64,000 bases of DNA from an uncultured Gammaproteobacteria bacterium (GCA_964443495.1 CAYUCS010000001.1:341496-405495); one strand, 5' to 3'; shown: positions 1,473-60,291, counted from the first letter of the stretch. Notes: generated from the sequence alone by a model not told the origin. Translations and numbers: made by a program.

Positions 1473-2639
1473 TCAGAACAATCCGCTTGAACCGAAACGG
1501 CCTTCGACTCGCTCAGTCTTGTCCATCAGCCTTTCTTCTATTACAACCGGCGTTTCCACTTTCTGTATCAGGAGCTGGGCGATTTTCTGGCCGGCTTCGA
1601 TGCGGTAAGGCGCTTGGCTGAGATTGATCAGGACCACGGCTAGAGGGCCGCGGAAATTTTCGTCTATGACTCCGGCCAGGGTGTGGATCCCTTTGGTGGC
1701 GATTCCGCTCTTGTCCCAGACCAGTCCGGCATAACCCTGCGGCAGCGCTAGCCTGATGCCAGTCTCGATCACTTTTTTCTCTCCAGGCGCCAGCTCATGC
1801 GCTTGGTCGGAAAAGAGGTCGAGGCCAGCGTCACCGGAGTAGCTGCGGCTCGGCAGCTTGGCGGTGGATGAGAGCCGTTCTATTTTTAATGACAAAGGCC
1901 GGCTTGAAGCTTCGGGGCTGGCTGGATTGACTACTTGGCGGCCGAGCAGCGGAGCGATTGCTTGCCAGACAAGCCAGTTGACGGCTTCGCGATCCAGGAT
2001 GGCCCCATGCGGGCTGCACTCGATCAGTTGGAAGCCGGGAAAAGTTTGGGCGATTTCCAGATAGACCCTTTCCGCGTTGCGCAAGTGCTCAAGGTCAGCT
2101 TCGTGGATATCGCGCTTCTGGCCGCCGACGTAATCGCGGTGGCCTTTCTGATCGACCAGTTGCTGGGCGACGGCCGCGTCCACATGCAGGATCAGGTTAA
2201 GGTCCGGCTTGGGGATTCCGAATTGCTCGTATTCCAATTGATAAAGCCAGTTGAAGTATTTTTGCCGCTCTGCGGCGTCGCTGATCTTGCCGCCTTGATG
2301 GCCCATGTTGGCTGTGACATAGCGGTTGGTGATGACGATCTTGCCTTCTTGGAGCCATTTGCGCATCTGGAAGCTGGCGTCGTAACGGTCAGCGGCGTAG
2401 AAGATGGAAGCGCGGTAGGGCCCTACTTCGTCAGCCGTGCCGTACTTGCCATTAAGGTATTCCTCGACCAATCCAGCGGATTTTTTGCCATATTGCGGAA
2501 AATCCACCAAGGCGACTTCGTAGCCGAGACGCTTGAGGCGTTCGGTCAAGAGCTGCGCCTGGGTCGCTTTGCCCGAGCCATCGGTGCCGTCGATGACGAT
2601 CAGCTTGCCGCTGTAGTTCTGGTCGATTGGTTGTTGCAT
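1473..2639 (-). CDS. tmk/dut: Thymidylate kinase - dUTPase fusion protein
   Basis: N-terminal half: LIVIDGTDGSGKAT P-loop and AADRYDAS (Tmk). C-terminal half: AGLDL, GVIDENFRG, KIAQLLI, RFGSSG (trimeric dUTPase motifs). The ORF extends to a GTG at 2678, but that codon lies inside a hairpin, so the ATG at 2639 is preferred. Confidence 0.8.
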   Translation of the reverse strand: MQQPIDQNYSGKLIVIDGTDGSGKATQAQLLTERLKRLGYEVALVDFPQYGKKSAGLVEEYLNGKYGTADEVGPYRASIFYAADRYDASFQMRKWLQEGKIVITNRYVTANMGHQGGKISDAAERQKYFNWLYQLEYEQFGIPKPDLNLILHVDAAVAQQLVDQKGHRDYVGGQKRDIHEADLEHLRNAERVYLEIAQTFPGFQLIECSPHGAILDREAVNWLVWQAIAPLLGRQVVNPASPEASSRPLSLKIERLSSTAKLPSRSYSGDAGLDLFSDQAHELAPGEKKVIETGIRLALPQGYAGLVWDKSGIATKGIHTLAGVIDENFRGPLAVVLINLSQAPYRIEAGQKIAQLLIQKVETPVVIEERLMDKTERVEGRFGSSGLF

Positions 2640-2647
2640 AGGGGTTT

Positions 2648-2682
2648 GAAGAAAACAAAGGAGTGCAGGCTCGTGCACTCCT
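2648..2682 (-). terminator. Intra-cluster hairpin (terminator or attenuator) between the kinase gene and tmk-dut
   Basis: AGGAGTGCA / TGCACTCCT 9-bp stem (2659-2682), followed on the minus strand by TTGTTTTCTTC. Confidence 0.4.
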
Positions 2683-2703
2683 CCTTGTTAGATTGTTAAT
2701 CGG

Positions 2704-3252
2704 TTACCTCGAAATCAGCTGGTCCAATTGCCGGTAGAGCGCGGCCAAGTCGCCGTTATTGTCTATTTCCGCGTCAGCATGGCCCATGACCTCGGGAATG
2801 GTCAGTTCGGTCGGCAGTTCGTGGTCAGCTTGGAATTGCTCGTAGGTCTTGGTGGCGTCATCGGCGTTCTCATTGCGCTTGGTCAGGCGCTCCCATCTCG
2901 TCCGCGGTTCGGCGACAAGGCGGATAAGCTTGAAGTCAGGAATCTCTTTCAAGTGAGTGATATCCGGCATGCGCCTGATGCCTTCGACGACCACTATCTG
3001 GTGCTCATCGTTCTTTGCATCGTTGGCTATGACCTTGGCCATAAGGTCCTGGCCGAAAGCGGCTCGCATTATCTCGGAGAAAGTGACGATGTTTTCGCGC
3101 GTTTGCGGAATGTAAAAACGATCAAGGCCATCGCGCAGCATCGTTGAAAAACGATAAGTCGAAGCGCCGTATTTTTCTTCAAGATACTTGGCAGCCGTAC
3201 CTTTGCCCGAGGCGATCAGGCCGGTAAAGCCGATGATGATTTTTTGGCTCAT
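2704..3252 (-). CDS. Small P-loop nucleotide or nucleoside-monophosphate kinase (CoaE/dNMP-kinase-like)
   Basis: N-terminal IIIGFTGLIASGKGT Walker A; 182 aa; embedded in the dTTP cluster. Confidence 0.5.
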   Translation of the reverse strand: MSQKIIIGFTGLIASGKGTAAKYLEEKYGASTYRFSTMLRDGLDRFYIPQTRENIVTFSEIMRAAFGQDLMAKVIANDAKNDEHQIVVVEGIRRMPDITHLKEIPDFKLIRLVAEPRTRWERLTKRNENADDATKTYEQFQADHELPTELTIPEVMGHADAEIDNNGDLAALYRQLDQLISR

Positions 3253-3255
3253 AGT

Positions 3256-4032
3256 TTAAAGCGGTATGTCGGATTTTAGGATCTTGCCGATCGGAGTGAA
3301 ACTGGCGGCATATTTGGAAAGCGGCTTTTCAGCGGGTTTCTGGGCCGGTGAGGCAGGAGCCGCCGGTTCGGCCTTTGGAGCCGTCACGGCAACCGGCAGG
3401 TCGGCCGGAACAGCGGCAGGCTGGATTTCGCGGATCGGGGCGATCGTGACCGCGGTCGGGGCCGGTGCCGGGTCGGCAATGGCCGGGGTGCCTGATTGCT
3501 GGGTGATGATGGTCTCGGTCGGTTGCGGGGCGGTTGGCGCCATGTCAGCGTAGGTCTCCATGTCGGTCGAAAGTATTTTGTACTGCACGCCGGTTTCAGC
3601 GAAGATATCGGCGGTGCGTCCGGAGCCATGGTAATTCTTCTGGCAGACGACGCGTTTGATGCCGGCATTGATAATCATCTTGGCGCAGGTATAGCAGGGG
3701 GTCATCTTCTGGTAGATGGTCGCGCCGTCAAGCGAGATTCCCTCGCGCGCGGCCTGGCAGATGGCGTTCTGCTCGGCGTGGATAGTGCGGATGCAGTGGC
3801 GGCTCTGGTGGCCGTCAGCATGAGTGACGGTGTGCATCTCATGGCCGATCTCGTCGCAGTGGGCAATACCGGCTGGTGAGCCGACATAGCCAGTCGCGAT
3901 GATGCGCTTGTCCTTGACGATGACGCAACCGAGACGCCCGCGGTCGCAGGAACCGCGGCTGCCGACCATATCGGCGATGTTCAAGAAGTACTCATCCCAC
4001 GAGGGGCGGTGGTGAGGAGTCGGATTTTCCAT
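3256..4032 (-). CDS. dCMP deaminase with a long Pro/Ala-rich C-terminal tail
   Basis: HAEQNAI and PCYTCAKMI zinc-binding motifs of the cytidine/dCMP deaminase fold; the last ~110 aa are low-complexity P/A/T-rich. Confidence 0.8.
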   Translation of the reverse strand: MENPTPHHRPSWDEYFLNIADMVGSRGSCDRGRLGCVIVKDKRIIATGYVGSPAGIAHCDEIGHEMHTVTHADGHQSRHCIRTIHAEQNAICQAAREGISLDGATIYQKMTPCYTCAKMIINAGIKRVVCQKNYHGSGRTADIFAETGVQYKILSTDMETYADMAPTAPQPTETIITQQSGTPAIADPAPAPTAVTIAPIREIQPAAVPADLPVAVTAPKAEPAAPASPAQKPAEKPLSKYAASFTPIGKILKSDIPL

Positions 4033-6617: not shown

Positions 6618-7163
6618 TTAGATTTTCTTGATCTGCAAGAAGTCGAGTTCCAGCGGCGTTTCGCGGCCGAACATCGAGACCAATACTTTGACTTTGCCCT
6701 TGGCTTCATCGACTTGGGTGACCTTGCCTTCCAGGTTCTTGAACGGTCCATCGACGATCTTGACCGGGGAGTCGACCGTGACATCGATGGTGAATTTCGG
6801 TTCTTCAACGCCCATGCGTTTCTGCAGCTCTTTGACCTCCGTGTCGGAAATCGGGGTTGGGACGGTGCCGGTGCCGATGAAGCCGGTGACGTTCGGCGTG
6901 TTACGCACGACGTACCAGGAGTCATCGGTTACGATCATCTCGACCAAGACGTAGCCGGGGAAGATTTTCTCTTCCACGGTTTTACGTTTGCCGTTCTTGA
7001 TCTTGATCTTCTTCTCGATCGGAATCAGGATATTGAAAATTTTGTCCTCCATGTCCATCGACTCGGTTCTCTGACGCAAGCTCTGGGCGACGTTCTCTTC
7101 GTAGCCAGAGTAGGTGTGGATGACGTACCAGCGACGGCCTTGGTTTAAGACTTGTTTAGCCAT
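6618..7163 (-). CDS. nusG: Transcription termination/antitermination factor NusG
   Basis: RRWYVIHTYSGYE NGN domain and a C-terminal KOW (VKIVDGPFKNLEGKV); secE-nusG-rplK-rplA synteny. Confidence 0.9.
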   Translation of the reverse strand: MAKQVLNQGRRWYVIHTYSGYEENVAQSLRQRTESMDMEDKIFNILIPIEKKIKIKNGKRKTVEEKIFPGYVLVEMIVTDDSWYVVRNTPNVTGFIGTGTVPTPISDTEVKELQKRMGVEEPKFTIDVTVDSPVKIVDGPFKNLEGKVTQVDEAKGKVKVLVSMFGRETPLELDFLQIKKI

Positions 7164-7206
7164 AGATTTATATTTATAACTTCTCCTTGTTGTTGAGATA
7201 AAGCGG

Positions 7207-7401
7207 TTAGGCGCCTCGGCTGATCAAGAGGCTCAAGCCGGTGGTGAAAACCATGTCCAGCAGGTATAAAAAAACGGAAACAGCCAAGCTGACACCGATG
7301 ACCATGAGCGTGTAGTTGGTGGTTTCATTCTTTGTCGGCCAGGTGACTTTTCGGAGCTCCTCGACCGACTCTTTAAGATACGTGGTTAGGCGGTTTACCA
7401 T
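7207..7401 (-). CDS. secE: Preprotein translocase subunit SecE
   Basis: 64 aa; ELRKVTWPTKNET followed by a single TM helix; located upstream of nusG. Confidence 0.85.
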   Translation of the reverse strand: MVNRLTTYLKESVEELRKVTWPTKNETTNYTLMVIGVSLAVSVFLYLLDMVFTTGLSLLISRGA

Positions 7402-7503
7402 AATTTTGGTTTAAAAAACAGCCCTTGCGGGCGTTCCAATTAACTATGATTAGAATAACCGATTGGCGATAAAATGTCAAGGTTTGGGCGCTGGGCGTAA
7501 ATA

Positions 7504-7512
7504 TGTTATAAT
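7504..7512 (+). promoter_or_regulatory. Extended -10 promoter element TGTTATAAT
   Basis: TGnTATAAT 10 nt upstream of the 7522 start; the same 9-mer type recurs before several genes in the window. Confidence 0.4.
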
Positions 7513-7521
7513 TAAGCCACT

Positions 7522-7905
7522 ATGGATAACAACAACGTAGCGATTTACAGCTCCAAGATCATTGCCGATATCGTATGGGGGATTTTTTATTTTCCCTTGT
7601 GGTGGTATGGGGCTGGATTGCTCAAATTCATACTTACATTAGGTAAATTTATTGCCGAAAGGGAGCACGAAACCGGCTTTTTGGTCTGGCTCAAGAATAT
7701 CGGCAAGCCGATGTATGGGCAGAGCGACTTCGCCGGTGTCCTCATCAGTATCTTCATGCGGTTCATTCAGATTGTCGTCCGAGGCGTTATTATGCTTTTT
7801 TGGCTATTTTTAGCTATAATTTTTCTGGGTATTTGGATTTGTCTGCCAATCGTCACTCTTTACGAGATTTTTTATCAAATCATCCCTTCAGCTAATCATT
7901 TGTAA
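7522..7905 (+). CDS. Small integral membrane protein, unknown function
   Basis: 127 aa with 3-4 hydrophobic helices; stop lies 3 nt before the Clp-like gene start. Confidence 0.6.
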   Translation: MDNNNVAIYSSKIIADIVWGIFYFPLWWYGAGLLKFILTLGKFIAEREHETGFLVWLKNIGKPMYGQSDFAGVLISIFMRFIQIVVRGVIMLFWLFLAIIFLGIWICLPIVTLYEIFYQIIPSANHL

Positions 7906-7908
7906 ACA

Positions 7909-10641
<2,733 letters not shown>

Positions 10642-25801: not shown

Positions 25802-27010
25802 ATGCAAACAAGGCATCATCAGTTGCATTTTTGGAGTTTCCTCCGCAACAAGGAAATGAACGAGATCTATCTGTCATACGGCGTCACTAACTTCGCCCTG
25901 GGCCTCGTTTCCATTTTCGTCCCGATCTATCTCTACAAGCTCGGCTTCCCCTTGCCTTGGATTTTGGGGTATTATTTCATGCTGCCCCTATCGTCAGTGC
26001 TGCTGACCAACCGGGTATGCGCCAGGGTCGTGGCCAAGTCCGGGGTCAAATGGTCGATGCTTATCGCGGTGCTGTTCAAGATGCTGTTTTTTACCTGCCT
26101 CTATCTCTTGCCGGCGCATCGATGGCTGTTCTTCGTCTTGCCTCTTTTGAATATGCTCAAGACGCAGATCTCGAGCTTGGGGTACCACCTTAATTTCATC
26201 GAGCACTCCGATGCCGCACATCGCGGGCGGCAGGTTTCGATCCTGCAATCGACCGCTTTGGCCGCCAATCTGCTGGCCCCGCTTATCGGCGGAGTGGTCA
26301 TCGGCCTCGTCGGTTTCAAGATGCTGTTCGTCGGCGCCATCATGCTGATGGCGGTGGCGGCGATTCCGATATTGATTCTGCCTACCCACAAGAACCTCAA
26401 GCCGGTCGAGTTCGATATCAAGAATATGTGGCGCGACATGCTTAAGCGGGAGAACTTGCCGCTATTCCTGAGCTATGGAGGCTACGCGATCGAGGAGTGG
26501 ATCGGCTTCGTGGTCTGGTCGCTGTTCCTCTTTTTCATACTACATAACACCGAGTCGGTCGGAGCGGCCAGCTCGATCGTAGCGGCCGTCACCTTTTTGG
26601 TCTTCTATCTGGTCGGCCGCCTGTCAGACAAGGTCAGCAAGAAAAAACTGATCAAGCTCGGCACTTTCCTCTATTTTTTCGGCTGGGTCGGCCGCCTGTT
26701 CGCCGACAGCTTCAGCTCGGTCATCTTCATCGATTCGTACAAGAATATCACCGGCAACTTCCTGCAAGTGCCGTGGTCGGCCTTTTCCTATGACTTGGCA
26801 GCGCGCCGCAACTACTTCCGTTTCATCGTCCAGCGCGAGCTGATGTTCGATCTTGCCCGGGTAATGGTTGCGCCGATCATTATTCTCGTTTTTGTCGCCA
26901 ACTACCACCCTTTCCTGATAGCCTTCACCATCGCCGCCTTGGCGAGTTTGGGGTATATGACGATAAATTATCTGCCGGAGAACATGGCTGGCGAATTCGA
27001 AAAACAATAA
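25802..27010 (+). CDS. MFS-type transporter
   Basis: About 12 hydrophobic helices; ATG at 25802 avoids the overlap with cysS that the longer ORF (25544) would create. Confidence 0.65.
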   Translation: MQTRHHQLHFWSFLRNKEMNEIYLSYGVTNFALGLVSIFVPIYLYKLGFPLPWILGYYFMLPLSSVLLTNRVCARVVAKSGVKWSMLIAVLFKMLFFTCLYLLPAHRWLFFVLPLLNMLKTQISSLGYHLNFIEHSDAAHRGRQVSILQSTALAANLLAPLIGGVVIGLVGFKMLFVGAIMLMAVAAIPILILPTHKNLKPVEFDIKNMWRDMLKRENLPLFLSYGGYAIEEWIGFVVWSLFLFFILHNTESVGAASSIVAAVTFLVFYLVGRLSDKVSKKKLIKLGTFLYFFGWVGRLFADSFSSVIFIDSYKNITGNFLQVPWSAFSYDLAARRNYFRFIVQRELMFDLARVMVAPIIILVFVANYHPFLIAFTIAALASLGYMTINYLPENMAGEFEKQ

Positions 27011-27027
27011 TTCAAGCGACAACTTAA

Positions 27028-27064
27028 ACAAGGCCCGCCAATCCATTTCGGCGGGCCTTGTTTG
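27028..27064 (+). terminator. Terminator after the MFS gene
   Basis: ACAAGGCCCGCC / GGCGGGCCTTGT 12-bp stem. Confidence 0.65.
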
Positions 27065-27168
27065 CAAGACCTGGACATCGCGCGGCCAATGTGGTTATAT
27101 GTCAATTGCAAAGCGTTCTTTGAATATACCAGGCCGGCGGGCGAAAAAAACGCAGAAAGGAGTACACG

Positions 27169-27459
27169 ATGAGACTAAAGACCCGGGTTATTCCGAACTT
27201 CGCTCACTTCCCAATGGATCCGCTCAAGCCGATGATGGAAACGCTTACGGTTGAGCTCTATGATGACGAGAAGGTTCTCGGCATCAACGATGAGGGACAA
27301 CTTCTTTTACTGGTTAATTTTGCCAACTCGCCCCACGACACTCCGCGCAAAGTGCTGTGTCACTTCATCACGCTTGACTTCGATTTTGACCCAACCCACA
27401 TGGAGTATAGGGGCCAGGCAAGAGGAAGGTCGTTGTTCGTCGAAGAACCGCACGGCTGA
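27169..27459 (+). CDS. Hypothetical protein (96 aa)
   Basis: AAAGGAG Shine-Dalgarno; native-looking composition; no domain recognised. Confidence 0.5.
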   Translation: MRLKTRVIPNFAHFPMDPLKPMMETLTVELYDDEKVLGINDEGQLLLLVNFANSPHDTPRKVLCHFITLDFDFDPTHMEYRGQARGRSLFVEEPHG

Positions 27460-27520
27460 CGACTCCACGCTGCGATAATAACTGACTCCGGAATAAGTCG
27501 GCCATGACGAATAAAACAAA

Positions 27521-27556
27521 AACCCTGCGGCAATGATGCGCAGGGTTGTTTTTTTA
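27521..27556. terminator. Bidirectional terminator at the left edge of the AT-rich island
   Basis: AACCCTGCG / CGCAGGGTT stem, then T9; A-rich upstream. Confidence 0.7.
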
Positions 27557-27574
27557 TTACCGAAAATCAAAAGT

Positions 27575-28048
27575 TTATTTTCTTTGGTCAACTAAACCCC
27601 CGATATACTTCGCTTTATAAATTTCATCTCCATCCGCGGACTTGATTATTTCCTCGCCAAAAAAATTATCGATTTCTCCTTCGTAAACATTGATATATTC
27701 AACGTCGTCAAGGTTGTATCGTTTTGGGCCACGAAATGGTTTATCCTCGGGAATCTGCGAAAGCGCACCCTGCAAGGTTTTGTAAACAGTCTGAACATCA
27801 GCAACGCCTTCAACCACCCAGCCATAATAAACCATCATGTAAACAGGTAAGCCTCGAAAAAATACAACCTCTCGTCCGCCATATGGTTCACCGCCAAAGT
27901 AATTATCATGATATTTCCAATCCCCATCTTCAAATATCAATGTTGTGGATTTGTCAGCTTCAACAATTTTTTTGGCAGAGTCACCAGCCGCATAAGTTGA
28001 TTTTTTAGCTTTAACCAGAAATTTACAAAGCTCGTTTTGGTCAAACAT
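27575..28048 (-). CDS. DUF5680-like protein of unknown function
   Basis: WKYHDNYFGGEPYGGREVVFFRGLPVYMMVYYGWV block as I remember it for DUF5680; AT-rich gene. Confidence 0.5.
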   Translation of the reverse strand: MFDQNELCKFLVKAKKSTYAAGDSAKKIVEADKSTTLIFEDGDWKYHDNYFGGEPYGGREVVFFRGLPVYMMVYYGWVVEGVADVQTVYKTLQGALSQIPEDKPFRGPKRYNLDDVEYINVYEGEIDNFFGEEIIKSADGDEIYKAKYIGGLVDQRK

Positions 28049-28310
28049 GATTTTAAATTACCACCTTAAAAATAAATTTTATTTCACTTAACGTTACTCA
28101 CATGCGAAGTTCGTTTGAAGCGTAGTGAAAACGAATTTGGGTGGAGGCTTTCGGAGAAAACCGTAACCGCATGTGAGTTGTTGTGCGATGTGAATATTTT
28201 TCTTTTGTTCGCCCTTAGACGAACGGCTCAAAAAAAGAATCTAATTTTGTTTTTCCGTCTTGGATTCAGGCCAGAGGGGTCAGGGGTGAATGGCCTGGAG
28301 CCAAGACTCC

Positions 28311-29561
28311 TTAAATTTTAAAAAAAATATCATTCAAATTATCCTCAGAAAAAGATGCATCATCTTTAATCCAAAACTTTATTGAATCTCGAAGAAATCC
28401 TTCTATCTTTATTATATCATCATTAGTTAATCCGTGTTTATTTCCATGCACTATTTTACTTCTGGTTGCATACATTTTTTTAATAAAATCAAATATTTCT
28501 TTTCTATGATCTTGATCTCCCAAAAGAAAAGCCACGCGCATTGATAATCTAAATGTTAATTCGTCATTTCCATTTGGTAAATATAGTGATTCAAGACCTA
28601 TCATATAGTCAATCAATTTATCTTCAATATTTCTTCGTTCCATGCCAAGACTCAATCTTCTCATGGCTATATTAAATCTAGTATCTTTTTCTTTCGTAAT
28701 GAACTGGTAAATATCAGAAAGTTCTTCAATTTCTGATTTTACAAGTACGCACTTTTCCCCTATAACTATATTTTCAAACCAGGAACCAATGGTTGTAATG
28801 CCGCCGTGAGGATGGAATGTTTCCATTTCTGAATTAATTCTATGATCCCTGTAAACTCCCGAAGATTTTAATATTCTAAGTGCGCTTATCACTCTATCAA
28901 AAATGTCACTTGATATGTTTAATTCATCCTCACCAGGAATAGCAAGTGGCTCTTCTGGCTCAGATGGCACTCCAGATTTAATAATTTTAGCGGTTTCATA
29001 CTTTCTTTGAATAATATATGATGATTTTGAAAAATTAGCATATCCTCCCTCAAAGTCATAATCAGGCTCTGATAAACTAACAACTTTAGTTTTTATTACA
29101 ATTCCGTCACTCAGATCAATCTCAGCCTCTTCATATTGAAAGTTGTACAGTGCGGTTGAGTCAATAAATTGCAGCTTTTCAGAATAAAATAACTCTTCAA
29201 AGCTCAAATATGCCTGATTGAATATGTCTAATGAAAATTCAGCATTTTTAAAATAAAAGCTTCTCAAGAAACTCAAAAGACACGATTCGGAATTTCCAGT
29301 GGTTGTAAAACCTCGGCAAGTTCCAACAAGATTGCCAAGTAAGCCGTTAATTTCTGGAGCAACTTTCATTATTTCCTCACATTCACTAAATTCTGGTATT
29401 TTTTTAATCTCATTATCAAAATTTATTAATAATCTAATTACATAATATTTTTCACTCATGCGTTGCGGATCTAACTTTAAATTCCGACCATAAAAAGAAA
29501 GTGCTGACTCAGTTAGCACTTGAAGGTTGATATACAATTCCTTGTTGTGTATTTGTTCCAT
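28311..29561 (-). CDS. HEPN-domain protein (C-terminal Rx4H RNase-type motif) with an unknown N-terminal region
   Basis: C-terminal helices RFNIAMRRLSLGMER, LIDYMIGLESLY, LTFRLSMRVAFLLG, KKMYATRSKIVHG (R367..H372, nt 28446-28463); very AT-rich. Confidence 0.6.
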   Translation of the reverse strand: MEQIHNKELYINLQVLTESALSFYGRNLKLDPQRMSEKYYVIRLLINFDNEIKKIPEFSECEEIMKVAPEINGLLGNLVGTCRGFTTTGNSESCLLSFLRSFYFKNAEFSLDIFNQAYLSFEELFYSEKLQFIDSTALYNFQYEEAEIDLSDGIVIKTKVVSLSEPDYDFEGGYANFSKSSYIIQRKYETAKIIKSGVPSEPEEPLAIPGEDELNISSDIFDRVISALRILKSSGVYRDHRINSEMETFHPHGGITTIGSWFENIVIGEKCVLVKSEIEELSDIYQFITKEKDTRFNIAMRRLSLGMERRNIEDKLIDYMIGLESLYLPNGNDELTFRLSMRVAFLLGDQDHRKEIFDFIKKMYATRSKIVHGNKHGLTNDDIIKIEGFLRDSIKFWIKDDASFSEDNLNDIFFKI

Positions 29562-29819
29562 ATTGAAAAATATTCAAATAAACTTTTTTTGCCTCTTTGT
29601 AGGCAAAAAAACACCTTATTACCCCTATATAAATAGATAAAAAAACAAAATTGAATTCTTTTTTGAGCCAGGGCGTAGCCCAAAAGGAAAACATGCATTT
29701 CGCACAACTCGTTATTATGCGAAATGTTTTCGCAAAACATGCTTAAATGTGTATGTTATACGAAATGTTTGATATAATTTTAGTGTTCGCTAACTTTAGA
29801 TTAATTATACCAATTGGCT

Positions 29820-30058
29820 ATGAAATTGGAAGAGTTATTGCGAAAAATTGAAAACGAGCTAAGGCTGAGAAATTTTAGCCGACGTACTATCAAAAGCTAT
29901 GTGGCTTGCCTCTCTGAGTATTTGAGGTGCGTCTAGGGGATAAATGCCGATAAGGGCGCTATGTACAAGAATCGTTAGGGCATGCTAATATCAGAACTGC
30001 TCAGATTTATACCAAAGTGACGAGTCCGATGCTGAAAAGCATCGCAAGCTCGTTGTGA
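29820..30058 (+). pseudogene. Tyrosine recombinase/integrase remnant (N- and C-terminal fragments, catalytic core deleted)
   Basis: 29820-29936 encodes MKLEELLRKIENELRLRNFSRRTIKSYVACLSEYLRCV*. 29975-30058 encodes LGHANIRTAQIYTKVTSPMLKSIASSL*. Confidence 0.7.
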
Positions 30059-30062
30059 AAAT

Positions 30063-30443
30063 ATGACCAGGGAAGATTTTGAACAATTGGTCGAGGAGGC
30101 GTTGGCGCTGATGCCGCAAGAATTCTTGGACAAGCTCGACAACGTTGCGCTGGTCATCGAGGACCATGCGAGCAAGGAGCAGCGCCGGCAAGCGCGCTTG
30201 TCCGGCAATCAGGTGCTGTTCGGGCTGTATGAAGGCATCCCTCTGGTCCAGCGCGGCGCCGGTTATGGCAATGTGTTGCCGGACAAGATCACGATATTCC
30301 AAAAGGCCATCGAAGCCAGCTGCACCACTAGGGAAGAAGTGCGCTTGAAAGTGCGGGACACGGTCTGGCACGAGATCGCCCACCACTTCGGCTCTGACGA
30401 ATCCGGCGCGCGGCAGGCCGGCAAGAAAGCGAATAAGTTATGA
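30063..30443 (+). CDS. Small zinc metallopeptidase-family protein (DUF1025/zincin-like)
   Basis: WHEIAHHFG HExxH motif; 126 aa. Confidence 0.7.
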   Translation: MTREDFEQLVEEALALMPQEFLDKLDNVALVIEDHASKEQRRQARLSGNQVLFGLYEGIPLVQRGAGYGNVLPDKITIFQKAIEASCTTREEVRLKVRDTVWHEIAHHFGSDESGARQAGKKANKL

Positions 30444-31402
30444 AAAAAAATTTTTGGCAAAAATTGAAAAATACGGATAATCCGATATTGGCATTAGCGC
30501 CCATGGCTGGCGTGACCGACGCGCCGTTCCGGCAGATGTGCAAGAAGTTCGGCGCCGATGTCGCCTATTCGGAAATGGCCAGCGCCACGGCCTTGAATTA
30601 CCAGCCGCAGAAGACTTTGGAACTGGTGAAGTTTGAAGAAGTCGAGCGTCCGTACGTGGTGCAGCTGTTTGGCGCCAATCCGGAGCACTTCGTTAAGGCG
30701 ACGAAGATTATTGCCGAAGAAGTCGGCCCCGACGGCATTGATATCAACTTTGGCTGCCCAGTGCCTAAGGTGCAGAAGCAGGGGGCGGGTGCCATACTGA
30801 TGGGCCACCCCAAGCTGGCGCGCGAGGTCGTCGAAGCGGTGCTGGCCAATACGTCATTGCCGGTGTCCATCAAAATCCGCGCCCGCATGGAGAAGGGCGA
30901 GGGGGATGCGCGTCGACGTGTCGATGCTTTGGAATTCTTGGAAGCGATGCAGGGGCTCGACTTGGCGGCTGTGATGATCCACGGGCGCTCGATGGCGCAG
31001 GGACATTCCGGGGCCGTAGATTTCGAGATCATCAAGGACGCGCGGCCACTCGTGCCAGGCGTGCTGCTGGCCAACGGCGGCGTGACGGACGCAGCCAGCG
31101 CGCGTGAGCTTTTGGAAAAAACAGAAGCCGACGGCCTGGGTATCGCGCGCGGCGCCATGGGCCGCCCTTGGCTGTTCGAGGAAATTAGGAATAACAAGAC
31201 AAGAGCATTGAGCAAAGAAGAGATTTTTGAAATAGCTTTGGAGCATGCCGGGTTAGCTGACAAGATTTTGGGCAGGCAGGGAATAGTTGAGCTGCGCAAG
31301 CATTTGTGCTGGTACGTGGCCGGATTCCCCGGCGCCGGCGAACTGCGTCAGCGGCTGGTCAAAGTCGAGTCGCTTGAAGAAATTAAAAATATCTTATCAT
31401 AA
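30440..31402 (+). CDS. dus: tRNA-dihydrouridine synthase
   Basis: LAPMAGVTDAPFR, INFGCP and HGRSMAQGHSG blocks; ATGA overlap with the upstream gene. Confidence 0.9.
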   Translation: MKKNFWQKLKNTDNPILALAPMAGVTDAPFRQMCKKFGADVAYSEMASATALNYQPQKTLELVKFEEVERPYVVQLFGANPEHFVKATKIIAEEVGPDGIDINFGCPVPKVQKQGAGAILMGHPKLAREVVEAVLANTSLPVSIKIRARMEKGEGDARRRVDALEFLEAMQGLDLAAVMIHGRSMAQGHSGAVDFEIIKDARPLVPGVLLANGGVTDAASARELLEKTEADGLGIARGAMGRPWLFEEIRNNKTRALSKEEIFEIALEHAGLADKILGRQGIVELRKHLCWYVAGFPGAGELRQRLVKVESLEEIKNILS

Positions 31403-31404
31403 AA

Positions 31405-31429
31405 AACCGCCCATGCAGGCGGTTTTTTT
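31405..31429. terminator. Bidirectional terminator between dus and the corA-like gene
   Basis: AACCGCC-CATGCA-GGCGGTT flanked by A6 and T7. Confidence 0.7.
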
Positions 31430-31441
31430 CAAACTCGTGGC

Positions 31442-32416
31442 CTAAAGCCATTTTTTCTTTTTGAAGAGAAGGATGATGACGCCGCTTATGACGGCTAATA
31501 AGCTCATAATGATCCAGAAGCCGCCTGGTTCATCGACCCAGGGCGTGCCGGTGGCGCGCATGGTGAAGATGGCGACGAAGAGGGTGAGGTAGAAGCTGAT
31601 GAGCGAGAAAACGGTCAGAGTTTTCATCGTGTCGTTCAGGTGGGAATTCAAGAGCGACTCGTTGGTGCTGTTCAGGATCTGGACGATTTCCTTTTGGTTT
31701 TCCAATATTTCCCAGATGGTGATCGAGTGGTCGATCAGCTTCTTGTAGTAGCCCTTGAGCTGTTCGGCTGGCACCAGTTTGCTTTTGAGTTCCATGAATT
31801 TGGAAAGGATCTTCTTGTGGCTGTGCATGATCTTGTGGAAGTTGATGATGTTCTGGCGCAGCATCAAGATTTGCGAAACGGCCTTGCGCTGTTCTTGGGC
31901 GAAGATAATCTCTTCGACCTTGTTGATGGCCAGGCTGTTCTTGTCCAAGAGCGGGAAGCAGGAGCGCATCAGCTTTTCCAAAAGCTCGTAAAGCAGGATG
32001 GTCGAGGATTCGAGCTTGAAGGTCAAAAGCGAGTCGCCATCTTTCTTGCAAAGGTTGAAAAATTCGTTCAAGGCCTGGAGGTTGCCGTTGTGCAGGGTGA
32101 TGATGTAGCCGTGCAGCACGAAAAAATCCACCTCGGTCGCGACGATGGTTTCGTTGAGGTAGATCGGGAAGTGCATGATGGCGAAGATATAGTTGTCGCC
32201 CCGCTGCACTGATGGGCGTTGGGCGAAGACGTTGCTGGAAGAGGCGTGCAGGTGTGCCAGCTGGAAGTTGAAGCGTTTGCGCAAATATTCAATCTCCCGC
32301 TTGCTGGCGTTGGCGATGTTGATCCAGGTGATTTTCTTGTTGGCCGTCCGCGGATTATCGACTTCGACAATCTGGATATTACGGCTGAGTTTTTCCTCCT
32401 TGATATCTTTTGGCAT
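31442..32416 (-). CDS. CorA-like divalent cation channel with a non-canonical filter (TMR instead of GMN)
   Basis: CorA-type cytoplasmic domain and two C-terminal TM helices ending KKKKWL. The conserved GMN position reads FTMRATG (nt 31556-31564). ATG at 32416. Confidence 0.7.
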   Translation of the reverse strand: MPKDIKEEKLSRNIQIVEVDNPRTANKKITWINIANASKREIEYLRKRFNFQLAHLHASSSNVFAQRPSVQRGDNYIFAIMHFPIYLNETIVATEVDFFVLHGYIITLHNGNLQALNEFFNLCKKDGDSLLTFKLESSTILLYELLEKLMRSCFPLLDKNSLAINKVEEIIFAQEQRKAVSQILMLRQNIINFHKIMHSHKKILSKFMELKSKLVPAEQLKGYYKKLIDHSITIWEILENQKEIVQILNSTNESLLNSHLNDTMKTLTVFSLISFYLTLFVAIFTMRATGTPWVDEPGGFWIIMSLLAVISGVIILLFKKKKWL

Positions 32417-32617
32417 ATTTATGTAGCATGTAACGTGTAGCATGAAGCAAGGAATCAGGATGCAATTGATGCATTTTCCTGTTTCACGTTACACGCTGCA
32501 TGTTACATGATTAATTATGCCACAGTTTGACATTTTGTGCAAAATCGGGTAGGGTAAATAATCGTGAAACCGCCCTTTTCAACCCTTAAAATAGAAAATC
32601 GTCAAAAGGAGGAGCAT

Positions 32618-33373
32618 ATGAATCTGGCCATCAAAGTCGGTTCAAACCTGTTGGTTGATGACTGTTCAGGCAAGGATGAGGTCAATTTCAGCTTCATTCA
32701 TGATCTTACCAGGCAGATCGCCGAATTGCGCAAGCGAGAACATCGTGTCCTGCTCGTGTCTTCTGGCGCTGTCGCCAGCGACCGGGCAGCGCATCGTTCC
32801 AAAAATCTGCGCGCGGCAGTCGGGCAATTGCGCCTGATGTCGGTCTATTCGCATTGTTTCAGGGAGCATGGCGTCCATGACGTCGGCCAGATTCTCGTGA
32901 CCGACCACGATTTCCGCCACCCGGAGGTCTTTTCCGCCACGGTCTTCGAGGCCTTCTCCGAGGGGGTCCAACTGGTAATCAATGCCAACGACCCGGTCAA
33001 CAACCAGGAACTCAAGAATATGGAGAAGTGCGAGGACAACGACCGCCTGATTGCGAGCGCCGCTTCGATCCTCAAACTGGACTTCGTCATGTTCGGCATC
33101 GACCGTCCCGGATTGATGAAGGATAAGGAAGTCGTCAGGCGCGTGACCTTGGCCGAAAGAGAAACTGTCCTTGGCTATGCCAAAGGCGGCAGTCAGCACG
33201 GCCACGGACCGGAGGGCATGCGGACCAAGCTTGAACAGATCTTCAGGCTGGTCCATCTGAACATCGACGCCATGCTCTTGCCGGCCCACGAAAACGACGC
33301 GTTCCTGCGCGGCGCCGACCTGATGCTCGGCAAGCCCGTCCCGCCCATCGGCACGATTTTTTCCATCGATTGA
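32618..33373 (+). CDS. Amino-acid-kinase family protein, glutamate 5-kinase (ProB)-like
   Basis: AAAGGAGGAG Shine-Dalgarno; IKVGSNLL, LLVSSGAVA, AAVGQLRLM, INANDPV, EDNDRLIASAA blocks. Confidence 0.6.
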   Translation: MNLAIKVGSNLLVDDCSGKDEVNFSFIHDLTRQIAELRKREHRVLLVSSGAVASDRAAHRSKNLRAAVGQLRLMSVYSHCFREHGVHDVGQILVTDHDFRHPEVFSATVFEAFSEGVQLVINANDPVNNQELKNMEKCEDNDRLIASAASILKLDFVMFGIDRPGLMKDKEVVRRVTLAERETVLGYAKGGSQHGHGPEGMRTKLEQIFRLVHLNIDAMLLPAHENDAFLRGADLMLGKPVPPIGTIFSID

Positions 33374-33416
33374 TTTTCAATCACGCCCCGGCCAGTTCGG
33401 GGCTTTTTTGTCGGTA

Positions 33417-33425
33417 TGGTATAAT
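33417..33425 (+). promoter_or_regulatory. Extended -10 element TGGTATAAT
   Basis: TGnTATAAT immediately after a terminator hairpin (33384-33409), 27 nt before the start at 33453. Confidence 0.4.
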
Positions 33426-33452
33426 GGAACCAAGAAAAGTAATCAAATCATT

Positions 33453-36074
33453 ATGGCTAAAAAATCTGTCTGGCTCGGAGCGTTCTTGCTCGGTTTGTTC
33501 TTGGCGGTGCCGGATGCCATGGCGGCCAACATCTATGTAACGGCCGATGCGGGGTCGTCCGGCGGCAACGGTTCCAGCGCCAATCCTTATAATTCTATTG
33601 CCGCAGCTTTGGCGGCCGCGGCGCCTGGCGATGTCGTCAGGCTGCGTCCTGGCGTCTATGCCGGTCCGGTCTCATTCCCGCATGGCGGCACGGCCGGCAA
33701 TCCGATTACTCTTAGGTCGGACGGCGCTGCCAGGTCGGCCGTCATTGATTGCAATTGGCTGGCCAACACGAATTGCTTGACCGTCGATCGCAGCAACGTG
33801 GTAGTCGATGGGCTCGAGGTCAGGAATTCCCGGATTTACGGCATCAAGATCGATGGCGATGCCGACACGAACCAGCCGATCAACGGCAACGAATACGGTA
33901 ATTATAATGGCAATCGCAACGGCGATCCGAATCTGCGTCGCTATCGGGTCAACGGGGCCGATAATGTGGTGTTGAGGAATAATTACATCCACCACATCGT
34001 CTTTGACGGACTCAAGATCGGCCATGTCAACAACATCCTGATAGAGAATAACGAAGTGTATAAGACCGGCATGACTGATCCGATTTCAGGCGCGGCCAGC
34101 CAGCAGCAAGGCATCGACCTGGTCGGCGCTTACGGCGCGGTGATACGAGGCAACTATATCCACGATGACCTGGACAATCCGTCGATGGATATCGGCATGT
34201 TCGCCAAAGGCGGAAGCCAGGATGTGGTAATCGAAAACAACAAGGTGGAAAACATGGCCGACATGCAAGCGGCGATCGAGGTTGGCGGCGACACGGAGAC
34301 TTATAACACGCGCTATACGCCGTCGTCAGTCGATTCCCAGTTCCATGCTGATATGCTCACGGGCAGGGACCAGGCGACCGGCGTCGCCAGTTATCCGATG
34401 GATGACGCTGGCAGATACGTTGCTTCGCTCATGTCCGAGGCGCGCAATGTCGTCGTGCGCGGCAACGTCATCATCAATGCCAATCCGCCGCTGTCATTCC
34501 GCAATTCGTACAACGCTTCAGCATACAACAACACCATCATCAATTCCGGCTGGTCGCAGGGAATGCTCAAGATCTGGAACGACTGCAACTGCTCATTCAA
34601 CCTGCACAATAACGTCAATATCAGGAATTATAATAATATTTTCTATAACGCGGATGCCGCTATCATGAGCGGCGGTGCGCCCGGAGCGGCCATCTATCAG
34701 AAGAACGCCGGCAATATCGGCGGATACCAGGCGAATAACAATATTTATTACAACCAAGGCACTGGCGCCATATCCTTTGTCAGCGGCACGGACTCCGCTT
34801 CCTTGAGGAATGCCGACCCGCAGCTATCCGCAACGCAGGTTCTGGTGGCGGGCAGCCCGGCAATAGGGGCCGGTGCGGACTTGCGAGCCTTGGGCTTGCT
34901 CGGAGCTAGCGAGACTTGGATCGATCGCAACGGTATTGTCAGGCCGACCGCCGCCGAATTGGCCAGTGGCTATGACATCGGCGCCTTGTCCGTCGCGGCT
35001 GGCGCGGCTGCTCCAGCCGACACCGCGGCACCGACTACTCTTGCCAACCCGATCGGCGGCACGTTCGTCTCGCCGCAAAGCGTAAGCCTGTCGGCTAACG
35101 AGCCGGCCACGATATATTACACCATCGATGGTTCTGATCCTTCGGTCAATTCCGCGACGTATGCCTCGCCGATCGCGATTTCCTCATCCGCAGTGCTGAA
35201 ATTCTTTGCTCGAGATCCAGCTGGCAACAGGGAAGCTATCCGTACCCAGAGTTACGTGATTGCCGTTCCGCCCGCGCCTCCGACCGCCGGCACCACCTCT
35301 GTGCCTACGGCGCCTACGCAGCCGTCAGTTCCTAGCGCGCCGTCTGCTCCAAGCAGCCAGTGCACTTCTTGGGTTTACTCGACTTGGGGTTCTTGCGTAA
35401 ACGGGTTGCAGAGCAGGACAGTTGTCTCAGCTTTGCCCAATGGCTGCATCGGCGGCGTGCCTTCGTTGGCGCAAGCCTGTACGGTTTTGCCGCCCGCAAC
35501 TGCCAATACTTCAGCGGCGCCGGCTGCCGTGTCCGCCGCTGCGGCAATCAAGGACAGCGACGGCGACGGCTTGCACGATGAGCTCGAGGCGGCGCTGCTT
35601 ACCGACAAGCTGAAGCCGGACAGCGACGGCGACGGTTATCAGGATCGGTCCGAGCTGTTGTCGGGCAACGACCCGGAGAGGGCCAGCATCGCGTTGCCCA
35701 TCAATACCGCTTTCAGCTCGAAACAAGCCGGAAGGATCTTGCTGCAGGTAGAGAACAAAGGGCAGGCCTGGTATATCAATCCTGTGGATTCAAGCAGATA
35801 TTATCTCGGCCGACCGGCCGATGCTTTCGCGGTGATGCGCAAGCTCGGCTTGGGCGCCAAGCACGCGGTAATCACCAAGGGCTCGTTTTCTTCTCGGCTG
35901 GCCGGCCGCATCTTGATCGACGTCGAGGATAAGGGGAAGGCTTATTATATCGACCCCAAGACGTTGAAGGCCCTTTTTCTCGGCCGACCGGCCGATGCTT
36001 TCGCGGTGATGAGGGCCAAGGGGCTGGGAATCAGCAATGCTGATCTGAAAAAGATCAAAGTCGGCGGCATTTAA
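33453..36074 (+). CDS. Large secreted right-handed beta-helix (pectate-lyase-fold) surface protein with Ca-binding repeats and twin C-terminal domains
   Basis: Signal peptide MAKKSVWLGAFLLGLFLAVPDAMA; repeated NN-x-I/V beta-helix rungs; P/T linker; DSDGDGLHDELE and DSDGDGYQDRSE; two copies of the GRIL..VE.KG.AYYI.P....LGRPADAFAVMR module. Confidence 0.7.
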   Translation: MAKKSVWLGAFLLGLFLAVPDAMAANIYVTADAGSSGGNGSSANPYNSIAAALAAAAPGDVVRLRPGVYAGPVSFPHGGTAGNPITLRSDGAARSAVIDCNWLANTNCLTVDRSNVVVDGLEVRNSRIYGIKIDGDADTNQPINGNEYGNYNGNRNGDPNLRRYRVNGADNVVLRNNYIHHIVFDGLKIGHVNNILIENNEVYKTGMTDPISGAASQQQGIDLVGAYGAVIRGNYIHDDLDNPSMDIGMFAKGGSQDVVIENNKVENMADMQAAIEVGGDTETYNTRYTPSSVDSQFHADMLTGRDQATGVASYPMDDAGRYVASLMSEARNVVVRGNVIINANPPLSFRNSYNASAYNNTIINSGWSQGMLKIWNDCNCSFNLHNNVNIRNYNNIFYNADAAIMSGGAPGAAIYQKNAGNIGGYQANNNIYYNQGTGAISFVSGTDSASLRNADPQLSATQVLVAGSPAIGAGADLRALGLLGASETWIDRNGIVRPTAAELASGYDIGALSVAAGAAAPADTAAPTTLANPIGGTFVSPQSVSLSANEPATIYYTIDGSDPSVNSATYASPIAISSSAVLKFFARDPAGNREAIRTQSYVIAVPPAPPTAGTTSVPTAPTQPSVPSAPSAPSSQCTSWVYSTWGSCVNGLQSRTVVSALPNGCIGGVPSLAQACTVLPPATANTSAAPAAVSAAAAIKDSDGDGLHDELEAALLTDKLKPDSDGDGYQDRSELLSGNDPERASIALPINTAFSSKQAGRILLQVENKGQAWYINPVDSSRYYLGRPADAFAVMRKLGLGAKHAVITKGSFSSRLAGRILIDVEDKGKAYYIDPKTLKALFLGRPADAFAVMRAKGLGISNADLKKIKVGGI
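35804..35837 (+). repeat. 34-nt exact intragenic direct repeat, copy 1
   Basis: TCTCGGCCGACCGGCCGATGCTTTCGCGGTGATG, identical to 35978-36011. Confidence 0.9.
35978..36011 (+). repeat. 34-nt exact intragenic direct repeat, copy 2
   Basis: Identical to 35804-35837; the flanking DNA of the two protein modules is diverged. Confidence 0.9.
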
Positions 36075-46224: not shown

Positions 46225-46422
46225 TTAAGCGAGCTTAACGTTCACTGCGTTCATTCCTTTCGGCGATTCCTCTGATTCGAAAGTGACCTGATCACCTTCG
46301 TTGATCTGGTCAAAGCTGACGCCGACCAGGGAATTGCTGTGGAAGAACAGGTCCTTAGCTTCGCCATCGATGGCGATGAAGCCGAAACCTTTGTCAGTCT
46401 TCTTTTTGATAACTCCGTTCAT
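46225..46422 (-). CDS. cspA: Cold-shock protein (CspA family)
   Basis: KGFGFI (RNP1) and LFFHSN (RNP2-like) motifs; 65 aa. Confidence 0.9.
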   Translation of the reverse strand: MNGVIKKKTDKGFGFIAIDGEAKDLFFHSNSLVGVSFDQINEGDQVTFESEESPKGMNAVNVKLA

Positions 46423-46514
46423 GATGTAATATCATTACTTTGTAAAATGGTAAATCAAACATTTTTAAAGCTCGACGAATTCTCTTTTTCAAAACATTTT
46501 TTTCACTTAGATAT

Positions 46515-46543
46515 ATTGTAGCATAAAATTAAAAAATTGTCAA
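46515..46543 (-). promoter_or_regulatory. Sigma-70-type promoter for the csp gene with a ~90-nt leader
   Basis: Minus strand: TTGACA (46543-46538), 17-nt spacer, TACAAT (46520-46515). Confidence 0.55.
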
Positions 46544-46560
46544 GAATGCCGTTTGCCGGG

Positions 46561-46589
46561 TTGATTTTATGCGCTTAACACGGTAATAT
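46561..46589 (+). promoter_or_regulatory. Promoter for the 40-aa basic ORF
   Basis: TTGATT, 17-nt spacer, TAATAT. Confidence 0.45.
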
Positions 46590-46614
46590 TAGTATTATTC
46601 ATAAATATCCAAAT

Positions 46615-46737
46615 ATGGCTAAAAGAAGCACTGGTGTTGGTAGCAAAAAGACCGGCAGCCCGCACAAGACCGCCAAGCGCCTGGAAACGAAGCGTGTCAG
46701 GCTTGAAGAATTGGCAGCAAAAAGGAAGAAGCGCTAA
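46615..46737 (+). CDS. Highly basic 40-aa microprotein (not in the ORF track)
   Basis: MAKRSTGVGSKKTGSPHKTAKRLETKRVRLEELAAKRKKR*; has its own promoter and a downstream hairpin plus T-run (~46749-46778). Confidence 0.4.
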   Translation: MAKRSTGVGSKKTGSPHKTAKRLETKRVRLEELAAKRKKR

Positions 46738-46794
46738 TAGATACACTGCGAATAAAGACACACCCAGAAGGTGCGTCTTTTTTTGTCTTGCTTA

Positions 46795-47190
46795 TTACAT
46801 CTCGGCATCTGGGGATGGCTCCATCAGTCCGAAACGGTTGCCCTCGGTATCTTTGGCGCCGGCAAACCAGCCGACCCCGGGAATCTCCGACCGTTCCTTG
46901 GTGATGGTGCCGCCGGCTTTTTTGACGGCTTCGACCGCCTTGTCCAGATCCTTGACTTCGACGGTGCAGTCATAGAGATAGAATCTGTCCGAACCGTCCT
47001 TTGGCCGTTCGTATAGGCCGCCGTTGATGCCTGGCTCGCCTTCTTTGCCAGTGATGAGACCCCAGTAGTCCATGCCGCTCTCTTCCTTTTTCATCCATTG
47101 CACGATTTCCCACCCCAGGGTTTCCTGATAGAATTTCTTGGCGCGCTCGATGTCATCGGCTTGGATTTCGAAATGAATTACTCTGTTCAT
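46795..47190 (-). CDS. VOC/glyoxalase-bleomycin-resistance family protein
   Basis: VIHFEIQADDIERAKKFYQETLGW...GWFAGAKDTEGNRFGLM. Confidence 0.75.
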   Translation of the reverse strand: MNRVIHFEIQADDIERAKKFYQETLGWEIVQWMKKEESGMDYWGLITGKEGEPGINGGLYERPKDGSDRFYLYDCTVEVKDLDKAVEAVKKAGGTITKERSEIPGVGWFAGAKDTEGNRFGLMEPSPDAEM

Positions 47191-60202: not shown

Positions 60203-60262
60203 ATTCGAAATTAGGATATAAAGTAAAATAAAAGCCTTTTCACCGAAGTTAAAAGCTTTTAT

Positions 60263-60291
60263 ATAATATGAGAGATTGGTCCATTTGTCAA
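60263..60291 (-). promoter_or_regulatory. Sigma-70-type promoter for rpmE
   Basis: Minus strand: TTGACA (60291-60286), 17-nt spacer, TATTAT (60268-60263). Confidence 0.5.

Follow-up and report, generated by a model that had tools for sequence, protein, structure and literature searches.

The AT-rich island and its flanks

Within a stretch of 64,000 nucleotides (CAYUCS010000001.1:341496-405495), which we will refer to as the window, positions 27560-30058 form an AT-rich island that carries two gene cassettes, a structured DNA element between them and, at its right edge, the remains of a tyrosine recombinase gene. The content of guanine plus cytosine (GC) is 34.9% in the island, versus 53.2% in the remainder of the 64 kb; this is the lowest-GC 2.5-kb stretch of the window, about 5 standard deviations under the mean (52.4%, standard deviation 3.6%), and the tetranucleotide deviation also peaks there (L1 distance 0.62, 6.1 standard deviations). 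The compositional switch that a first-pass annotation of this DNA had noticed by eye is thus confirmed by both measures, and the positions proposed for it (left edge at about 27.56 kb, right edge at 30.06 kb) agree with computed shifts near 27.5 kb and between 29.95 and 30.06 kb, the left edge falling within 27460-27574. The GC content at third codon positions (GC3) is 0.24 in the gene for a protein of 416 amino acids (aa) and 0.34 in the DUF5680 gene, the two genes of the island, and 0.63-0.78 in the flanking cysS, MFS, orf96, Zincin_1, dus, corA and amino-acid kinase genes. Mild low-GC patches (0.39-0.44 GC) also occur at about 46301-46800, 60101-60700 and 7001-8000, all of them far weaker than the island. 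The features of the locus are the following:

27510..27558, unstranded: stem-loop between A/T runs, AAAACCCTGCG..CGCAGGGTT (inverted repeat I4), between DUF5680 and the open reading frame (ORF) 27169-27459
27575..28089, minus strand: cassette 2, with the short leader TTAAGTGAAATAAAATTTATTTTTAAGGTGG and the DUF5680 gene 27575-28048 (Pfam DUF5680, E 1e-24)
28078..28192, minus strand: predicted attC-like structured site of cassette 1 (covariance model R1), with R'' box, three-way junction P1-P3 and R' GTT 28092-28090
28090..29708, minus strand: cassette 1, from GTT 29708-29706 to the next GTT 28092-28090, its boundaries placed by the rule of the family
28180..28307, minus strand: 3' hairpin 28257-28307 (loop CACCCCTGACCCCTCT, minus strand) and D unit 28180-28254, the latter an inverted copy of the U unit
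28311..29561, minus strand: cargo gene of 416 aa, HEPN-like
29640..29708, minus strand: U unit, the 5' inverted unit of cassette 1, GTTGTGCGAAATG..hairpin..GCTCAAAAAAGAATTCAATTTTGTTTTT; the leader follows at 29562-29639
29696..29770, minus strand: predicted attI-like docking site, a motif shared with the regions 5' of intact recombinases
29820..29945, plus strand: N-terminal recombinase remnant, residues 1-42, with an in-frame stop at 29934-29936 (tblastn with the recombinase of the related locus L004)
29957..30058, plus strand: C-terminal recombinase remnant, residues about 240-272, the LGHANI..IYT block with the catalytic Tyr (tblastn, same query)
Flanking genes (Pfam): cysS, MFS and a 96-aa ORF on the left; Zincin_1 and Dus on the right

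Compared with related loci, this anatomy makes it probable that the island corresponds to the end of an integron-like cassette array that lies next to the integrase, in a chromosome of Candidatus Falkowbacteria (Patescibacteria, or candidate phyla radiation, CPR). An artefact of assembly or binning, by which AT-rich DNA of another organism had been joined to this genome, would account for the GC gap of 18 points and for the breaks of Logan contigs within the island, and is extremely unlikely. Contig L118 of run ERR3839025 equals window 26470-28220 at 100% identity and covers the left junction (3' part of MFS, orf96, DUF5680, up to 28220), and L001 of the same run equals 29652-34329, also at 100% identity, and covers the right one (recombinase remnant from 29652 on, then zincin, dus and corA). 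Since independent contigs reproduce both junctions, the island is real and no assembly chimera; furthermore, L004 has an orthologous recombinase at the same chromosomal position. The Logan contigs of this run (k=31) end at the 30-mers 28191-28220 and 29652-29681, both within the inverted end units of cassette 1, which suggests that the sample contains heterogeneous strains or shared repeats.

A search with Dus led to relatives among Candidatus Falkowbacteria and other Patescibacteria, and cysS lies directly or closely 5' of dus in 15 of 26 related loci. The closest one, L003 (Dus identity 82%), has cysS, MFS and dus in this order, with MFS stopping 10 bp before dus; judged from this gene order, the MFS-dus junction of L003 is the empty site that the first-pass annotation had proposed to look for. 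Its description of the flanks as ordinary genes (cysS and MFS, peptidase and dus) was likewise borne out by Pfam. In L004, a Falkowbacteria relative with a Dus identity of 73%, an intact recombinase of 272 aa abuts the dus start. The GC content is 52.5% in the host of the window versus about 45% in L003 and about 40% in L004, the base composition of the host lineage having moved strongly. Two flanking genes have no counterpart in the related loci: orf96 (27169-27459) encodes 96 aa with a host-like GC3 of 0.63, has no Pfam, NCBIfam or PADLOC match and is missing from the relatives' loci; the Zincin_1 gene (30063-30443, GC3 0.76, also host-like) sits between the recombinase remnant and dus, and no zincin homologue is encoded in the 26 related loci. 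The stem-loop 27510-27558 is terminator-like by eye and was not among the hits of the terminator pattern scan; promoter and terminator scans gave counts no different from those of shuffled sequences and were thus uninformative.

Recombinase remnants, predicted docking site and intact relatives

Two short ORFs at the right edge had been taken by the first-pass annotation for fragments of one tyrosine recombinase gene whose centre is missing, and a tblastn search with the L004 homologue proved decisive in favour of this claim: residues 1-42 align with 29820-29945 (69% identity, E 1e-13) and residues 240-270 with 29957-30049 (71% identity, E 2e-9). The remnants lie in different frames, 11 bp apart, and about 197 codons have been deleted between them, including those for the catalytic Arg, Lys and His-x-x-Arg, leaving the last His and the Tyr block. 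Their matches to integrase profiles are correctly placed, the N-terminal one on Phage_int_SAM_4 (E 0.005) and the C-terminal one on Phage_integrase positions 154-169 (E 0.09), but both score under the Pfam cut-offs, as expected at 27-40 residues. The GC3 of the remnants (0.47-0.51) is intermediate between that of the host (about 0.7) and that of the cassettes (0.24-0.34), a weak signal from only about 73 codons which hints that the platform is older in the host genome than its cargo.

Intact recombinases of this family are found in L004, L064/L075, L067, L038 and L060, and decayed ones in the window, L030, L085 and L041/L087. The modes of decay are diverse: the recombinase at L085:820-1590 is without the 15 residues that bear the catalytic Tyr, those at L041:8016-8165 and L087:2659-2808 retain about 54 N-terminal residues, and that at L030:2170-2437, which diverges from the homologous cassette gene, has stops and frameshifts. 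Several intact homologues directly precede housekeeping genes, namely dus (L004), a glycosyltransferase gene (L119) and lepA (L120), and from this context they are read as resident chromosomal genes. Because they are resident and face arrays of small cassettes with the structured site, the AT-rich DNA is interpreted as cargo captured at a chromosomal platform.

Over 110 nt 5' of the recombinase start, as far as the motif AACTCGTTATTATGCGAA, the window and L004 share a conserved sequence. The motif CTTCGCATAWWAAMNA|GTTRNNYRAAAT occurs 85-120 nt 5' of the start codon in the window, L004, L064, L067, L038 and L060. In the window it belongs to the predicted docking site, the core of which comprises 31 bp (CATTTCGCATAA-TAACGAG-TTGTGCGAAATG, 29726-29696, minus strand) and is a palindrome of 12+7+12 nt (29696-29726), with the crossover predicted at GTT 29708-29706 (minus strand). 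A second copy of ACATTTCGTATAA lies at about 29756-29770 (repeat pair D13). As for the attI site of integrons, the predicted site is beside the recombinase gene and the first cassette would start there; moreover, the recombinase-proximal start of the arrays resembles the 3' half of the structured site. In L004, about 180 nt of GC-rich, strongly palindromic DNA (L004:8860-9041) separate the attI-like site from the first small gene; this stretch is without an R1 match and holds an inverted copy of the attI-like motif (8918-8946 versus 9047-9075).

The first-pass annotation had implied a self-contained integrative element with its own integrase, now stuck. In this sense, an ordinary genomic island, like a phage or an integrative and conjugative element (ICE), that entered the MFS-dus interval with its own integrase and later lost its mobility through the integrase deletion would be in keeping with a sharp AT-rich block of foreign codon usage, an integrase remnant at one edge and the empty site of the closest relative. 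Such an origin is nonetheless quite unlikely. The short direct repeats that were expected between the island edges are absent, no exact match reaching 8 nt (among approximate families, the best is D2, a 14-mer with 79% identity), no tRNA gene was found beside the island, and no phage or conjugation function was detected among its ORFs with Pfam, NCBIfam and PADLOC. The intact homologues are resident and fused to housekeeping operons, the interior of the island has the cassette-site-cassette anatomy common to many loci, and the GC3 of the remnant differs from that of the cargo, though in a small sample. The claim of immobilisation stands as far as the centre of the recombinase is deleted; what froze, however, would be a platform rather than an element.

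The recombinase family comprises at least 6,896 members at E<=1e-30, and every match bearing an organism name comes from a metagenome-assembled genome of the Patescibacteria group. The source databases name its members XerD, "tyrosine-type recombinase/integrase" or "site-specific tyrosine recombinase/integron integrase". Against the integron integrase model TIGR02249 (cut-off 265 bits), the L004 recombinase scores 201; its match falls into two parts, about 55 residues are missing, and residues 180-194 of the protein take the place of about 70 model positions; on PRK15417 it scores 121 versus 435. The best model is the XerA-like NF040815 (XerA_Arch), with 216.4 versus a cut-off of 220; XerD gives 190 (versus 330) and XerC 183 (versus 335), so that no Xer equivalog cut-off is reached.

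The structured site and the cassette arrays of related loci

The element at 28078-28192 is the single match to model R1 in the window (115 nt, 108.9 bits, E 6e-23). R1 is a covariance model built from 24 aligned elements, which fold as a three-way junction with AAC and GTT (nearly) invariant in the seed; in the related loci, which add up to 676 kb, 136 matches have E<0.01. Paired cells amount to 95.9% in 99 distinct matches, versus 72% in shuffles and 38-49% with slid partners, and compensatory changes occur in 19 of 21 pairs, counts that are inflated since the alignment (A5) was fitted to the model structure. This covariation argues that the fold is selected. On the sense strand, A.C mismatches outnumber G.T pairs (42 versus 23, one fixed pair left out), which argues against a fold of the sense RNA, and folding of the bottom DNA strand would fit, if weakly. 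The conserved element measures about 105 nt (median site length 103 nt, range 54-199) and displays the single-stranded motifs GGTTACGG and CCTCCACCCAAATT. Its boxes read ACATCRNMTAAC and GTTAKNYGAAAT; the canonical RYYYAAC fits 18 of 108 sites and GTTRRRY 26 of 108. An Rfam scan of 26.5-31 kb (E<=1) gave only chance-level matches, and hence no known RNA family for the 115-nt element.

A collection of 82 metagenome stretches was retrieved with a 21-mer from the end unit. Most of them are of the U type, in which the unit lies 5' of diverse genes and is followed by a leader resembling a Shine-Dalgarno (SD) sequence, or of the D type, in which an inverted copy lies 3' of the genes; the conserved element separates a gene's D unit from the U unit of the gene that follows. 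R1 matches reach 16 in L108, nine in L037 and 5-6 each in L085 and L080, and in every multi-site locus except L113 the sites are co-oriented. The recombinase gene occupies one end of the array and points away from it in the window, L030, L038, L060, L064/L075, L067 and L085, and likewise in L004 and L041/L087. In L119 and L120 the R1 elements lie 5' of the recombinase on the opposite strand, with the housekeeping genes directly 3'. Among 62 distinct cassettes the median length is 808 bp (range 75-3269 bp), and in 54 of 60 cassettes the longest ORF runs in the same direction as the array.

The boundaries of the cassettes can be read from two observations. On the one hand, of 54 cassettes with an element on either side, 44 have an R'' box that is more complementary to their own 5' end than to that of the following cassette, and 6 show the opposite (Wilcoxon p = 7e-8). 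On the other hand, L108 holds a duplicated cassette whose copies share about 90% identity between AC|GTTAGC and GGAC|GTT and cannot be aligned beyond these points. The duplicated unit takes in the structured site, at its 3' end, and extends as far as the next GTT, so the site moves with the cassette; own-end complementarity and the L108 boundaries together define the mobile unit as GTT, gene, R'', junction fold and ..AC(G).

Cassette 1 of the window conforms to this rule. Its D unit closes with the R'' box ACATCGCACAAC (28191-28180, minus strand), which is complementary to the cassette's own 5' end, GTTGTGCGA, and the inverted alignment of U and D scores 87 (shuffles 31 +/- 5, maximum 51). No further copy of the inverted units, the structured site or an integrase was found within the 64-kb window. 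Homologues of cassette 1 exist in other contexts with the same end units (P0002, 73% aa identity; P0003, 70%): the homologous cassette is the first in L030 and internal in L033, with different neighbours and in the same orientation as in the window. The nucleotide identity of about 80% with the copies in L029/L030 and L033 is restricted to the cassette, and the L029/L030 copy adjoins a decayed recombinase. In the 3' units the hairpin loop CACCCCTnACCCCTCT is complementary to the SD-like 5' leader AGAGGGGTAATAAGGTG (28180-28307 and 29562-29708; L036-L117). Short leaders like that of cassette 2 also occur 3' of sites in L037 and L039. Downstream of DUF5680 (27460-27575, R1 with filters off), the best candidate for an attC-like site scores 7.1 bits (E 2.8) and is not significant.

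The long inverted repeats of cassette 1 admit two other explanations. The repeats of about 75 nt at 28180-28254 and 29640-29708 could be the substrates of an inversion that once turned the expression of the 416-aa gene on and off by flipping it and that is now locked because the recombinase was lost: as in invertons and shufflons (fimS/FimBE, phase-variable hsdS), a tyrosine recombinase gene adjoins a segment flanked by significant inverted repeats, the Logan contigs break within both of them, and the recombinase distantly matches models of tyrosine-type DNA invertases (E 1e-12 to 3e-14). We consider this very unlikely, and the inversion reading was dropped because the arrays are uniformly co-oriented, sites and nearly all ORFs keeping their orientation relative to the recombinase in all multi-site loci but one. 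Unlike in invertons, no orientation polymorphism was seen, the homologous cassette not being inverted in any of window, L030 and L033, and the repeats belong to palindromic junctions between directly repeated, co-oriented cassettes. Cassettes without end units share the same arrays, and the L108 duplicate shows direct, not inverted, mobility.

Alternatively, the units could be transposon-like, bounded by terminal inverted repeats (TIR) in the manner of miniature inverted-repeat transposable elements (MITE), and insert into a conserved structured target with no involvement of the neighbouring recombinase. The long end units do start with GTT and finish with AAC, their inner 24-mer is 100% identical where the DNA identity of the genes reaches only about 80%, and terminal inverted repeats would equally be expected to make R'' complementary to the cassette's own 5' end. 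This possibility is unlikely as well, and it was dropped as the main model because the structured site is carried along in the L108 duplicate and is no fixed target. Many cassettes, also within the same arrays, possess the 12-nt boxes only, without long end units; no target-site duplication was seen at the three cassette copies examined; no transposase is recognisable among the annotated cargo proteins (a cargo ORF of 350 aa in L056 left out); and the first site of the arrays, next to the recombinase, looks like the 3' half of the structured one.

A proposed integron-like device in Patescibacteria: mechanism, relatives and cargo

The integron-like reading favoured here can be put as a sequence of events. 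A chromosomal, Xer-like tyrosine recombinase of 272 aa, which faces away from short, mostly single-gene cassettes, would excise them as circles by recombining two structured sites; the circles would be inserted at the docking site, with strand exchange at or beside AAC|GTT in the fashion of integron integrases. In the window, the AT-rich cassettes (GC3 0.24 and 0.34, in a host of about 0.7) would have been captured from low-GC donors, which in this model explains an AT-rich patch in a GC-rich genome; the GC3 contrast suggests that the capture was recent. Cassette 2 would have lost its terminal site, and a deletion of about 590 bp after the capture would have taken most of the catalytic domain of the recombinase. 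Since the recombinase is gutted, the array of the window is probably frozen, unless another recombinase copy acts in trans. The model accounts for the AT-rich 2.5-kb patch, for its HEPN-like gene and for its probable fixation.

Integrons are the classic device of gene capture and shuffling, defined by an integrase with an extra domain and described from a restricted number of bacterial phyla, to which Archaea were added in 2022; the insertion of IntI is required for recognising folded attC sites. As in sedentary chromosomal integrons such as the Vibrio superintegron, the recombinase gene of the present loci diverges from co-oriented, mostly single-ORF, promoterless-looking cassettes and adjoins a docking site. 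The cassettes end in an imperfect palindrome of about 100 nt, starting ..AAC and ending GTT.., their boundaries lie at GTT, and the inverse core of a cassette complements the bases with which that same cassette begins. They also carry accessory, defence and resistance cargo including an arr-type gene, and integrase decay beside surviving arrays is common in integrons too. Site sequences are highly similar within a lineage in the Vibrio VCR repeats, as in the arrays described here. With respect to the defining features of integrons (PMC9668308; Ghaly et al., 2022; archaeal integrons), the related loci show co-oriented cassettes split by imperfect palindromes with a median of 103 nt (attC sites measure about 55-141 nt), own-end complementarity (44 versus 6 of 54) and cassette boundaries at the G|TT of R' (the L108 duplicate). 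On the other hand, the IntI-specific domain around patch III (IntegronFinder; Messier and Roy, 2001) is absent from the L004 orthologue. Because its recombinase is without this defining insertion, we do not file the family among integrons: by its sequence it is a variant that would work like an integron and is not a member. Further differences are the 272-aa Xer/XerA-like recombinase itself, a three-way junction instead of a simple hairpin of R and L boxes, the long end units and the Patescibacteria hosts.

Two other Xer-related systems are to be compared. The pdif (Xer) modules of Acinetobacter plasmids are gene modules between inverted Xer-type sites, 28-bp duplexes in alternating orientation. 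The docking site of the window is dif-like in its 12-nt inverted arms around a 7-nt spacer; pdif modules differ in having no folded element, no co-oriented array at a dedicated recombinase and no own-end complementarity through a 100-nt site. Besides, a Xer-related "Cand" subgroup of simple tyrosine recombinases confined to candidate phyla has been described, and such class-specific simple recombinases, "Cand" included, have been suggested as Xer stand-ins, no cassette arrays being reported (Smyshlyaev et al., preprint 10.1101/542381). The taxonomy and profile scores of the present family fit this subgroup.

Several points weigh against the integron-like interpretation. In addition to the inflated pairing counts mentioned above, the sample of 82 stretches is biased by its retrieval with the 21-mer, L119 and L120 alone being independent, as they were chosen by recombinase homology. 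The recombinase has no IntI-specific insertion, and this family could itself serve CPR bacteria as housekeeping Xer (the "Cand" subgroup), its adjacency to arrays possibly having another cause. Many cassettes bear inverted end units of 75-150 nt, unlike those of integrons. The window itself offers one structured site and two cassettes, the second without a terminal site, and the Logan contig breaks fall in the end units, away from the predicted crossover points. Neither recombination products nor circular cassettes nor alternative arrangements were seen, the basis of the model being comparative anatomy.

From the broader point of view, the platform type appears common in CPR bacteria, as far as sequence comparison can tell. 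That these bacteria own a widespread integron-like system of gene capture, made up of a short "Cand"-type Xer-like recombinase, a three-way junction of about 105 nt and, often, long end units, is put forward more tentatively, at somewhat less than even chances. To our knowledge, few mobile elements have been described for CPR bacteria, whose genomes are tiny. No description of integrons or cassette arrays in CPR, Patescibacteria or Parcubacteria was found in the open-access and bioRxiv literature, although an earlier one is possible. If true, the proposal would provide CPR bacteria with their own equivalent of the integron on a plain Xer-like recombinase, the extra domain of IntI would be dispensable for cassette capture, and thousands of CPR proteins annotated as "XerD" or "integron integrase" would acquire a concrete function. 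Furthermore, R1 would become a searchable DNA signature for accessory and defence genes in CPR and, if most of the at least 6,896 family members serve arrays, a major overlooked route of gene flow and defence turnover in ultra-small bacteria would be at hand.

The cargo of the sampled arrays is heterogeneous, and includes AAA_13, Eco57I-type and N6/N4 methylases, a Schlafen-group-3 helicase, an AAA_33 kinase, Arr rifampin ADP-ribosyltransferase, NUDIX and DUF7768 proteins. The arr gene type is known from classical integron cassettes; here, an L080 cassette (oriented coordinates 2622-3576) encodes an Arr-ms rifampin ADP-ribosyltransferase (Pfam E 2e-46). The 416-aa protein of cassette 1 has 74 homologues, all unnamed. 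A distant one, P0008 (45% identity; L034/L035), is flanked by neither inverted units nor sites, which shows that the gene occurs outside arrays as well. A Foldseek search with the AlphaFold2 model of the 416-aa protein gave no PDB match. The model itself (predicted local distance difference test, pLDDT, 89.7) has an N-terminal alpha/beta domain and a helical C-terminal part (residues 275-414). HEPN ribonucleases have an all-helical domain in which an R-x(4-6)-H motif is conserved. HEPN_Apea matches the protein weakly (14.5 bits, cut-off 24.4), with weak matches in 9 of 64 members (best E 0.0018), and the motif R367-x4-H372 is invariant across the 64 aligned homologues. An effector of the HEPN type with RNase activity is plausible, and the role of the gene is probably defensive.

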